Below are positions 3,447-5,537 of a stretch of 12,663 nucleotides of DNA, piece after piece. Location of the stretch: UHGV virus genome UHGV-0172014; one strand, given 5' to 3'. The notes beneath the pieces are model-generated. The model saw only the letters and a list, made by a program, of their open reading frames with translations, was not told the origin of the DNA and did no database searches. Numbering within the stretch: position 1 is the stretch's first letter; each line of letters starts with the position of its first letter. The DNA is from a virus. Position numbers and translations under genes: made by a program.

Positions 3447-3707
3447 ATGCAATCACCATTACGAAATGTGCGTAAGGCGCATTGTTTCACTTTGCAGCAT
3501 GTTGCTGCGGGTGTTCAAGTCAATCCAGCGACGTTGAGTCGTATTGAGAGGCTGGAGCAGATTCCATCTATCGAGCTTGCAGAACGTTTAGCCAATTTTT
3601 TTAAGGGTGAAATCAGCGAAATGCAGATTCTTTATCCGGCACGTTTTCAATCTAGCCAAAACCAGAATGGGTTTAAACCACAGGAACAGGAGGTGAACCG
3701 TGGGTAA
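3447..3707 (+). CDS. cro: Cro-like HTH regulator (86 aa)
   Basis: ATG at 3447 with GGAGGA SD; HTH segment (AHCFTLQHVAAGVQVNPATLSRIERLEQ); divergent from cI across the operator cluster. Confidence 0.75.
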   Translation: MQSPLRNVRKAHCFTLQHVAAGVQVNPATLSRIERLEQIPSIELAERLANFFKGEISEMQILYPARFQSSQNQNGFKPQEQEVNRG

Positions 3708-4251
3708 GCATCACTGGAAAGTAGACAAACAGCCTGAGTGGTACGTGAAAGCTGTCAGAAAAACTATCGCAGCGTTGCCGGGGGGTTACGCTGAAGCTGC
3801 TGACTGGCTGGATGTAACAGAGAACGCATTATTTAACCGCCTTCGTGCCGATGGCGATCAGATTTTCCCGCTGGGATGGGCAATGATTTTGCAACGTGCT
3901 GGTGGAACTCACTTCATTGCTGATGCTGTGGCGCAGTCTGCAAATGGCGTCTTTGTGTCTCTTCCTGACGTCGAGGATGTGGACAACGCCGATATTAACC
4001 AGCGTCTGCTGGAAGTCATTGAACAGATCGGCAGTTATTCAAAACAGATTCGTTCAGCAATCGAAGACGGTGTAGTGGAACCGCATGAGAAGACAGCAAT
4101 TAATGACGAGCTCTACCTCTCAATTTCGAAGCTGCAGGAGCATGCAGCACTGGTCTACAAAATCTTTTGCATTTCAGAAAGTAATGACGCCCGCGAGTGT
4201 GCAGCTCCGGGCGCCGTGGCGTGTCGTGACTGTGGAGAAACTAACGCATGA
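3700..4251 (+). CDS. Early regulatory protein in the CII/YdaT position (183 aa); family uncertain
   Basis: GTG start at 3700 with AGGAGG SD (6-nt spacer), overlapping the cro stop; position immediately after cro matches CII/YdaT-like genes of lambdoid prophages. Functional call is positional and from memory. Confidence 0.55.
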
Positions 4252-4586
4252 ACAGTTTAACAACACACTACCGTCGCTCGCAACTGATTGCGCTTCCTGT
4301 ACCGGGTGGAAAAGCGAAGGTGGAGTATTGCTATGCAGTTAATGTACCAGGTGACAGGGAAATTGTAACCCACAGCTTTGCTGAGTGGGCTGTGGGTGAT
4401 TTCAACCGGCAGAAGGAGACAGTCCTTTGCGACAAGTTAACCGCTGGTTCAAAGATCACTACGGAGTGCCCGTCAGAGTCATTCGTTGGGAGCCGGAAAC
4501 ACAACGAGTTATCTACCTCCGCGAAGGCTATGAGCATGAGTGCTTCAGCCCGCTCGAACAGTTTCGTCGTAAATTCAGGGAAATAG
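4248..4586 (+). CDS. Hypothetical protein; possibly frameshifted (protein-like N-terminal ~57 codons, low-complexity tail)
   Basis: ATG at 4248 overlaps the upstream stop (ATGA). The first ~57 residues look protein-like; the remainder (…[22 protein letters not shown]) looks like off-frame translation, while a different frame becomes protein-like from about 4400. Confidence 0.35.
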
Positions 4587-4606
4587 AGGTCGGTCATGAG
4601 CACTAA
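4427..4606 (+). CDS. Small ORF (59 aa) in an alternative frame, TTG start with AAGGAG SD; or the C-terminal part of a frameshifted gene
   Basis: Frame is open from 4400 to the TAA at 4604-4606; TTG at 4427 sits 8 nt after AAGGAG (4413-4418). Translation (…[58 protein letters not shown]) is compositionally protein-like. Not in the ORF track (non-ATG start). Confidence 0.35.
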
Positions 4607-5537
4607 ATTAACCGGCTATGTATGGGATGGTTGCGCTGCATCAGGCATGAAATTATCCAGCGTGGCAATTATGGCCCGCCTGGCTGATTTCAGTAATGAC
4701 GAAGGTGTGTGCTGGCCATCAATTGAAACTATTGCCCGTCAGATTGGCGCGGGGATGAGTACCGTCAGGACGGCTATCGCACGGCTGGAAGCAGAAGGCT
4801 GGTTAACGCGTAAGGCGCGTCGCCAGGGTAACCGCAATGCGTCGAATGTTTATCAGCTTAACGTTGCGAAGCTTCAGGCAGCGGCATTTTCTCAACTGTC
4901 AGATTCTGACCCGTCAAAATCTGACGCATCAAAATCTGACCCGTCAAAATTTGATGCGTCGAAATCTGGCAAAAAAGCGGGTTTTCACCCGTCAGAATCT
5001 GGCGGGGATCCGTCAGTAAAATCAAAACATGATCCGTCAGATAAAAAACCTTCTCGTCCGGACGCTTCGCAACCGGACACGCAGACGGATGAACAGGATT
5101 TTTTAACTCGCCATCCTGATGCGGTTGTATTCAGCCCTAAAAAGCGCCAGTGGGGAACGCAGGATGATTTGACCTGCGCACAGTGGCTCTGGAAAAAAAT
5201 CATCGCCCTGTACGAGCAAGCCGCCGAATGTGACGGCGAGGTGGTTCGTCCCAAAGAACCGAACTGGACAGCCTGGGCAAACGAAATTCGCCTGATGTGT
5301 GTGCAGGATGGTCGTACTCACAAACAAATCTGCGAGATGTACAGCCGCGTCAGCCGCGATCCGTTCTGGTGCCGTAACGTGCTCAGCCCGTCGAAGTTGC
5401 GGGAAAAATGGGATGAGCTTTCCCTGCGCTTATCACCGTCCGTCAGCACGTACACCGAAAAACGCGAAGACCCGTACTTCAAATCCAGTTACGACAACGT
5501 GGACTACAGCCAGATCCCGGCAGGATTCAGGGGGTGA
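4596..5537 (+). CDS. Replication initiator (O-like: N-terminal HTH DNA-binding domain, low-complexity linker, C-terminal domain)
   Basis: ATG at 4596 with GAGG SD; N-terminal winged-helix/HTH-like region (SVAIMARLADFSNDEGVCWPSIETIARQIGAGMSTVRTAIARLEAEGWL); a tandem repeat array inside the linker, as the lambda origin lies inside gene O; position after the cro/CII block. Confidence 0.65.
   Translation: MSTKLTGYVWDGCAASGMKLSSVAIMARLADFSNDEGVCWPSIETIARQIGAGMSTVRTAIARLEAEGWLTRKARRQGNRNASNVYQLNVAKLQAAAFSQLSDSDPSKSDASKSDPSKFDASKSGKKAGFHPSESGGDPSVKSKHDPSDKKPSRPDASQPDTQTDEQDFLTRHPDAVVFSPKKRQWGTQDDLTCAQWLWKKIIALYEQAAECDGEVVRPKEPNWTAWANEIRLMCVQDGRTHKQICEMYSRVSRDPFWCRNVLSPSKLREKWDELSLRLSPSVSTYTEKREDPYFKSSYDNVDYSQIPAGFRG
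4896..5050. repeat. Iteron-like direct repeat array (candidate replication origin) inside the initiator gene
   Basis: Five head-to-tail 15-bp units (CTGTCAGATTCTGAC, CCGTCAAAATCTGAC, GCATCAAAATCTGAC, CCGTCAAAATTTGAT, GCGTCGAAATCTGGC; 4896-4970), then three degenerate copies (CCGTCAGAATCTGGC 4989-5003, CCGTCAGTAAAATC about 5010-5023, CCGTCAGATAAAAAACC 5034-5050) with A-rich tracts (AAAAAAGC, ATAAAAAACC). Confidence 0.6.

Follow-up and report, generated by a model that had tools for sequence, protein, structure and literature searches.

The ymfM region of an e14/SfII-like prophage: evidence for two genes overlapping in different reading frames

The stretch of DNA analysed here, called the window throughout, is the 12,663-nucleotide (nt) sequence of the UHGV virus genome UHGV-0172014, an e14/SfII-like lambdoid prophage of Escherichia coli. 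Positions 4100-4750 match a region of E. coli strain E1 with 100% identity. Among 5,426 complete E. coli genomes about 1,900 carry the locus (coverage of at least 80%), as do phages SfII, SfIV and others. This report deals with the short region between the regulator gene ymfL and the replication gene, where the ymfM open reading frame (ORF) is overlapped, in another frame, by an ORF of the DUF4222 family. Sequence comparisons show that both frames carry signatures of selection: DUF4222 is conserved as a protein, while the tail of ymfM bears no amino-acid constraint but avoids stop codons completely and ends at a fixed position.

Gene order and annotation of the region

The genes are, in order, a cI-like repressor gene, a cro-like gene, ymfL, the ymfM/DUF4222 region and the replication gene (Table 1). 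The TGA stop of ymfL (4249-4251) overlaps the ATG of ymfM at 4248 in an ATGA arrangement, and the TAA of the DUF4222 gene overlaps the start of the replication gene. The ORF of 112 amino acids (aa) is ymfM of E. coli K-12 (b1148, "cell division inhibitor YmfM"), with about 97% DNA identity over the aligned region. The K-12 e14 gene, also known as SfiC, agrees with it in length (112 codons) and lies, like it, between ymfL and a replication gene, and its sequence is not really different. A preliminary description of the window, made from the letters alone, had this ORF protein-like at first and Ser-rich thereafter. That is correct base for base: a conserved N-terminal domain of about 55 aa (hereafter the N-domain) is followed by some 52 residues rich in Ser, Thr and Ala. 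No Pfam family matches the 112-aa ORF. In PHROGs it is matched over residues 1-112 by phrog_1170 (E 4e-70), and its first 58 residues match a separate 63-aa family, phrog_20047; the database holds three separate families for the region, phrog_1170 (112 aa), phrog_20047 (63 aa, N-terminal part only) and phrog_1343 (DUF4222).

The second frame, -1 relative to ymfM, is closed by the TGA at 4397-4399, is open from 4400, has its first start codon, TTG, at 4427-4429, and runs for 59 codons to 4606, with the AAGGAG Shine-Dalgarno (SD) sequence 8 nt before the TTG, all as first described. The arrangement AAGGAG-N8-TTG occurs a single time in the window, where 0.07 occurrences would be expected. Pfam assigns the 59-aa product to DUF4222 (PF13973) with an E value of 8.6e-19 and 67.3 bits (cut-off 27), over profile positions 3-52 of 53. 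Neither YmfM nor the DUF4222 protein was matched in NCBIfam.

The TTG gene is not new as an ORF. The Prokaryotic Genome Annotation Pipeline (PGAP) already annotates exactly 4427-4606 with the TTG start, as WP_001250269.1 in RefSeq E. coli, and leaves 4252-4426 empty; in every record inspected it gives DUF4222 only and never ymfM. The K-12 reference annotation lists ymfM only, with no coding sequence for DUF4222. Phage records are inconsistent, calling either ORF, both, or an antisense ORF, and the DUF4222 gene is missing from many of them. The proposal that gene callers had overlooked the TTG gene is thus right for the K-12 reference and many phage records and wrong for PGAP. Each annotation misses one conserved gene, K-12 the DUF4222 gene and PGAP ymfM. 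An ORF of 90 aa with a GTG start on the minus strand (4331-4603), in codon phase with DUF4222, was rejected as an antisense shadow, being open in only 24 of 39 homologues; its equivalent is annotated as a hypothetical protein in some Klebsiella and Escherichia phage records.

Table 1. Coordinates of the features of the ymfM/DUF4222 region in the window, with the evidence for each (AF2, AlphaFold2; dN/dS, ratio of non-synonymous to synonymous divergence).
Feature	Position	Strand	Evidence
ymfL, CII-like (CP76-like) regulator gene	3700-4251	+	Pfam Phage_CP76, E 1.5e-13; NCBIfam phage_reg_YmfL, 168 bits (cut-off 90); PGAP
ymfM, 112 codons and TAG (4584-4586)	4248-4586	+	ORF list; K-12 b1148; phrog_1170
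Non-overlapped part of ymfM, conserved N-terminal domain (about 55 aa)	4248-4426	+	dN/dS 0.31-0.47; population variants; short stand-alone homologues
Shine-Dalgarno AAGGAG of the DUF4222 gene, 8 nt before TTG	4413-4418	+	Sequence; purine runs at the same place in relatives
DUF4222 gene, 59 codons, TTG start, TAA at 4604-4606, -1 frame relative to ymfM	4427-4606	+	PF13973; PGAP WP_001250269.1; dN/dS; identity with RgdR; AF2
Dual-coding stretch of 160 nt, ymfM tail (frame 0) over DUF4222 codons 1-53 (frame -1)	4427-4586	+	Stop-avoidance tests
ymfM TAG, then AGGTCGGTC (holds the GAGG Shine-Dalgarno of the replication gene), then the replication-gene ATG in the same frame	4584-4598	+	Geometry common to 39/39 homologues
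Replication initiator-like gene with HTH_36 domain	4596-5537	+	Pfam HTH_36, E 4e-11; "DNA replication protein O" or "primosomal protein" in phage records

Independent starts and constraint in the two frames

The region was compared with two sets of sequences. The first comprises diverged homologues from Klebsiella, Pantoea and Escherichia phages (L163-L173 in our numbering of loci) together with 33 loci of species-representative genomes (L174-L206) of Enterobacter, Citrobacter, Kosakonia, Atlantibacter, Kluyvera and other genera, spanning 62-100% DNA identity to the window. The second is a population sample of 152 prophage copies from E. coli and Shigella, which fall into 56 haplotypes and include near-identical copies from scans of viral contigs. 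Throughout the first set, the DUF4222 frame is always -1 relative to the upstream ORF, whose product begins MNSL or MTSL. The DUF4222 start lies at the same aligned position in 45/45 diverged loci, mostly as ATG, as GTG in two, and as TTG solely in the E. coli/Shigella lineage, and the relatives carry a purine-rich, SD-like run of the GGAG or GGGC type before it. In seven loci (L171, L186, L192, L194, L199, L203 and L205) the -1 frame closes only 0-6 nt upstream of this start, which therefore leaves no room for a ribosomal shift. No indel occurs among the 152 E. coli/Shigella copies, their TTG never varies and neither frame is cut short by a stop. At position 4397, where the closing TGA begins, the T is replaced by C, A or G in some E. 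coli copies, in each case silently for ymfM; this upstream TGA is therefore not itself conserved, unlike the TTG.

The two parts are also separable. A wider search with the N-domain found it as a stand-alone protein of 59-68 aa in many phages. DUF4222 follows the N-domain gene in the same frame and with no overlap in one group of loci (L258-L283), it follows after a short gap in L280 and L282, and it follows in the +1 frame in L222, L224 and L247. In the phiNP group (L172, L223-L256) the two genes lie about 700 nt apart with a rha gene between them. The long overlapping form is restricted to the clade whose DUF4222 resembles that of the window.

These observations bear on the choice, left open in the preliminary description, between two genes, the second starting at TTG, and one gene of about 117 aa carrying a frameshift near 4400-4426. 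They make it likely that the region holds two independently initiated genes with an out-of-frame overlap of 160 nt. That a single ancestral gene of about 118 aa, joining the N-domain to DUF4222, was split by a frameshift mutation, an assembly error or a pseudogenising indel near 4400-4426 can for practical purposes be dismissed. Its one source of encouragement is a protein search with a fused query, which returned a few single-frame proteins of 100-119 aa (P0001-P0006, P0008 and P0033). In these apparent fusions the frame switches at differing positions, each comes from a single contig (Logan, ENA or JGI), and they have the look of errors made in sequencing or assembly; P0008 and P0033 even retain an internal Met exactly at the DUF4222 start. 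A single-frame version was never seen in well-assembled genomes. The two-frame layout is identical in all the indel-free E. coli/Shigella copies and recurs at 62-76% DNA identity in Klebsiella, Enterobacter, Citrobacter, Kosakonia, Pantoea and others, and both the N-domain and DUF4222 are still under purifying selection, as shown below.

A more subtle version of the frameshift is a programmed -1 ribosomal shift within 4400-4426, which would yield a fusion of the N-domain with DUF4222 besides, or instead of, the separate products. The constant -1 relation throughout the overlapped lineages and the AAGGAG near the putative shift region would suit such an event; SD-like sequences stimulate frameshifting in dnaX and prfB. 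The locus resembles the known programmed frameshift genes (dnaX at -1, prfB at +1, and the phage tail-assembly genes G/GT) in these respects: two frames, a nearby SD-like element and a constant -1 relation. It differs from them in that no in-phase slippery heptamer of the form X XXY YYZ is found on direct reading of 4398-4430, in having a conserved independent start, in the closure of the -1 frame up to that start in several lineages, and in that its genes can be separated, standing elsewhere in the same frame, in the +1 frame or on either side of another gene. What is conserved is a start codon with its SD, not a shift site, and the TGA at 4397 varies within E. coli. A programmed shift is accordingly very improbable. 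The frameshift branch of the earlier proposal, in each of its forms, therefore does not hold: every relative has a DUF4222 start of its own, the genes are separable and there is no slippery site.

Amino-acid constraint was measured as dN/dS with the Nei-Gojobori method (NG86), the window being compared with homologues of Klebsiella phages, Atlantibacter, Citrobacter and Phytobacter. In the DUF4222 frame the proportions of non-synonymous and synonymous differences (pN and pS) are 0.04-0.08 and 0.61-0.78, and dN/dS is 0.04-0.06. The ymfM frame over the same bases gives artefactual values of 3-11. The non-overlapped N-domain of ymfM has a dN/dS of 0.31-0.47, in homologues diverged by 20-28% at non-synonymous sites. 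The synonymous sites of DUF4222 are as saturated as those of the replication gene (pS 0.61-0.78 versus 0.70-0.73), and the amino acids of the ymfM tail are therefore unconstrained. Closer relatives give the same picture. The window differs from K-12 by three substitutions in 4248-4426, all silent in the ymfM frame, and by three in 4427-4606, silent in DUF4222 and all altering the ymfM frame. The population sample has 20 synonymous and 7 non-synonymous variants of the ymfM frame in 4248-4426; of those in the overlap, 14 alter ymfM but not DUF4222, 3 do the reverse and 2 alter both. DUF4222 is thus strongly and the ymfM N-domain moderately constrained, and the tail peptide is unconstrained. A 112-aa frame conserved end to end beside an unconserved second frame, the outcome that the preliminary description had named as telling against it, is not what the data show; two genes with a TTG start for the second, as it had proposed, agree with the DUF4222 match, the conserved start in relatives and a dN/dS of about 0.05.

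These values also leave next to no chance that the 112-aa YmfM is the only real product and the DUF4222 frame a spurious shadow ORF. The K-12 reference does list ymfM alone, the name to which a published phenotype is attached (bioRxiv 10.1101/2020.11.19.390815). A shadow would not, however, be the frame with a dN/dS of about 0.05 where its supposed host frame gives 3-11. In addition, members of the Pfam family DUF4222 stand by themselves in other contexts and distant taxa, one of them, RgdR, has been characterised genetically (PMC3378721), and the DUF4222 protein of the window folds confidently as an AF2 model.

The ymfM tail and its fixed end

The state of the frame of the ymfM tail can be read from the codons that DUF4222 uses. 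A stop in the ymfM frame is possible only where a Val, Leu or Ile codon of DUF4222 ending in TA or TG precedes a codon that starts with A or G; such sites are called at-risk below. In a codon alignment of 39 unique sequences, the stop-making codons are never used at at-risk sites. Codon column 4 contains only GTT, CTT, CTC, ATC and ATT, and CTG accounts for 0 of the 21 Leu codons at this at-risk column, against 27/39 at the safe column 31. Columns 18 and 28 contain only GTC and GTT. The choice varies with the first base of the following codon: at column 16, GTC is used in 13/13 cases before AGR, and GTA or GTG in 7/26 before CGN; at column 19, ATC is used in 9/9 cases before AGR and ATA in 6/30 before CGN. 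By parsimony on a neighbour-joining tree, 16 third-position changes occurred at columns that are always at risk, none of them (0/16) to A or G, all being T or C; at comparable columns, 16/22 changes involve A or G (Fisher p 4.6e-6). If codons are drawn according to the usage of the flanking genes, a frame open as far as the one observed is expected with a probability of 0.02-0.17 per sequence (mean 0.07). The other frames are not spared: the +2 frame has stops in 38/39 sequences and two antisense frames in 39/39.

DUF4222 genes with and without an overlapping ymfM, assigned by explicit lists and counted without phylogenetic correction, differ in the same way. None of 245 at-risk codons makes a ymfM-frame stop in the overlapped sequences (n=51), whereas 92/333 do so in the non-overlapped genes (n=46); by gene, stops in this frame occur in 0/51 and 42/46, respectively.

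The end of the frame is conserved as well. The ymfM stop falls at one alignment column in 37/39 sequences, where a rare codon (ATA, TTA, CTA or GTA) and a following A or G create it, and this across Ile, Leu and Val replacements in DUF4222. From this stop to the ATG of the next gene there are 9 nt in 36 of the 39, 6 nt in two and 3 nt in one; the ATG is always in the same frame, and the stop adjoins the AGG or AAGGA Shine-Dalgarno of the next gene. The geometry is the same ahead of at least five types of replication gene, with DUF4222 running 8-89 nt beyond. The spacings, with overlap or no more than about 10 nt between stop and start, are those expected of a translationally coupled operon, ymfL and ymfM sharing ATGA and the ymfM stop lying 3-9 nt before the replication-gene ATG.

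It may be objected that the tail is a functionless run-on, that it is open only as a side effect of the conservation of DUF4222 or of common descent, and that only the N-domain and DUF4222 matter. The unconstrained tail peptide and the saturated synonymous sites of DUF4222 agree with this, as does the existence of short N-domain-only proteins; the +1 frame is open, too, in five distant DUF4222 genes whose status is ambiguous; and after a within-gene synonymous shuffle, too conservative to decide the matter, the frame is still open in 7-68% of the trials for each sequence. We nevertheless hold a mere run-on to be unlikely. The 16 independent at-risk changes stayed T or C where 16/22 at comparable safe sites went to A or G, and the codon chosen varies with the base that begins the next one. 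In DUF4222 genes of similar sequence that lack the overlap, stop-making codons fill 28% of at-risk sites. The ymfM stop has been restored at a single position, by means of rare codons, through all the I/L/V replacements. The early impression of a reading frame that simply trails off into Ser-rich sequence must thus be revised: the sequence is free, yet the frame is stop-free across the clade and its end is fixed 9 nt before the replication gene.

The comparisons show that ymfM gained its tail by overprinting, that is, by reading on into the +1 frame of DUF4222 instead of stopping, and that DUF4222 has a start of its own with its SD and TTG (ATG or GTG in relatives). As a mechanism we propose that ribosomes pass from ymfL to ymfM through the ATGA overlap. 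Those translating ymfM would reach a stop on the SD of the replication gene and so couple translation of that gene to ymfL-ymfM; the stop would also avert an in-frame fusion of YmfM with Rep. Because only openness and the end point are conserved, selection on the tail probably acts on ribosome transit and not on the peptide. An alternative is that the tail is a disordered segment whose function tolerates any Ser/Thr-rich sequence.

Three side observations may be added. In a predicted RNA fold of 4385-4470, GAAGGA pairs with UCCUUU, including the first two bases of the UUG (4411-4428). This hairpin could make DUF4222 initiation depend on ymfM translation; its z score of -1.35 is not significant, and it is not evidently conserved in the lineages that start with ATG. 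In SfV orf37 (L207:1152-1988, 278 aa) and ST64B sb41 (L208:1158-2315, 385 aa), a ymfM-like frame without a stop runs on into an Ash-domain gene (Pfam Phage_ASH), and a DUF4222 gene with a GTG start is nested, in another frame, wholly inside these ORFs of 278-385 aa. Further downstream, within the replication gene, the 15-nt unit TCTGACCCGTCAAAA is repeated in tandem in 4.3 copies (4905-4968) and encodes a DPSKSDASKS... repeat; it resembles the origin iterons found within O-like genes.

Several points weigh against the reading of the region given here. The DUF4222 frame is interrupted, with the ymfM frame intact, in two draft genomes: a stop occurs at codon 7 in Phytobacter sp. V91 (L205, 1501-1521) and the gene is truncated after 45 codons in Kosakonia quasisacchari (L191). 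These are the only loci with an interrupted DUF4222, and they could be errors of draft assembly or real pseudogenes. The AF2 model of YmfM is not confident (predicted local distance difference test, pLDDT, 38), and it is conservation that speaks for the N-domain as a folded protein. Prophages recombine and their lineages are not fully independent, and a test on 0/245 versus 92/333 overstates significance. The coupling role of the tail is deduced from its geometry, and the TA conserved at the stop may owe something to the A/U-rich surroundings of the replication gene's ribosome-binding site. Finally, the literature yielded no ribosome profiling or proteomics for the locus and no direct evidence of translation for either frame.

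The products, filamentation and comparison with known systems

The one characterised relative of the DUF4222 protein of the window is RgdR (ECs1581), to which it is 41% identical over 49 aa (BLASTP E 3e-11) and which itself matches PF13973 (E 2e-23). RgdR is a prophage regulator that activates type III secretion of the enterocyte effacement locus (LEE) and represses motility (PMC3378721, PMC10877973). It was unannotated in EDL933 and, like the gene of the window, has escaped annotators repeatedly (PMC3378721). It is encoded by prophage Sp7 (OI-51) of enterohaemorrhagic E. coli O157:H7 Sakai, where its gene (L292:23305-23604, ECs_1581) lies immediately upstream of the primase gene and overlaps it by 4 nt. 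The two proteins are alike in being small, prophage-encoded and DUF4222-bearing, with genes directly upstream of a replication gene and stop and start overlapping. They differ in length, RgdR having 99 aa with N- and C-terminal extensions against 59 aa; in context, the RgdR gene belonging to a P4-like element, before a primase, with no ymfM-like ORF overlapping it; and in known phenotype, that of RgdR being activation of LEE type III secretion and repression of motility, not filamentation. The RGD motif of RgdR (R20-G21-D22), reported as important for the activation of type III secretion, is absent from the window protein, where V4-N5-R6 is aligned with it; [VL]NR is the conserved form at this position in the clade of the window. 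At the loci examined, DUF4222 usually stands directly before, and overlaps the start of, a replication gene or a gene of the Ash/Rha type. With an AF2 model of pLDDT 83, the window product is, as far as its predicted fold goes, an RgdR-like small beta-barrel protein. By analogy, for which RgdR is the only precedent, it may act as a small regulatory cofactor of the prophage, encoded just upstream of the replication gene. The hidden gene ties the locus to the RgdR family of prophage regulators, which rewire host virulence and motility.

The YmfM N-domain belongs to a small family, with 56 cluster representatives among 1.84 billion. Residues 19-50 (window 4302-4397) gave repeated weak matches (13 stretches, 37% identity) to P0122, a protein of 1,654 aa composed of Listeria-Bacteroides (Flg_new) repeats, a hint that the small, beta-rich fold of this repeat may also be that of the N-domain.

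Filamentation, the SOS-inducible SfiC phenotype, was obtained from a library clone running from the 3' end of ymfL through ymfM into ymfN, of which it included the first 92 codons (PMC3614548). It was also obtained from the 339-bp ymfM ORF in pBAD24 (bioRxiv 10.1101/2020.11.19.390815). The K-12 record and the papers treat this ORF as one product; actually it also holds DUF4222 codons 1-53, with their own SD and TTG. Both clones contain the SD, the TTG and these 53 codons, which make up the whole Pfam domain, and a deletion of ymfM takes out both genes. The terms "western", "tagged", "kDa" and "start codon" are all absent from the preprint (10.1101/2020.11.19.390815), and a literature search that did not include the e14 analysis paper (PMC331406) and the Ribo-RET supplements found no paper separating the two frames. 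Since the published clones encode both proteins, the phenotype, and with it the inhibition of FtsZ-ring formation, is not yet assignable to YmfM or to DUF4222. It is conceivable, though we would not favour it at present, that SfiC filamentation is wholly or partly due to the nested DUF4222 protein or needs both proteins, the ymfM tail then being only a stop-free "ribosome conveyor" that couples translation of the replication gene to the ymfL-ymfM message. In that case transit, and not the peptide, would be what selection favours in this overprinted extension. We found no prior report of selection on both frames, of an open but unconstrained tail with a fixed end, of the complementary gaps in the K-12 and PGAP annotations, or of the ambiguity over YmfM and SfiC.

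The overlap may be compared with those of lambda Rz/Rz1 and of phiX174. As in these, one stretch of DNA is used in two frames, the younger, overprinted frame is compositionally biased, and the internal gene has a ribosome-binding site of its own. Unlike them, the overprinted part is here a C-terminal extension of the upstream gene and not a new nested gene, and the tail peptide seems to be unconstrained. Only the openness of the tail and its end point are conserved, which argues for a translational role rather than a second functional domain. The ymfM/DUF4222 pair would thus be an unusual and well-supported case, among bacterial and phage overlaps, in which selection keeps a frame open and holds its end in place, but does not keep the peptide.

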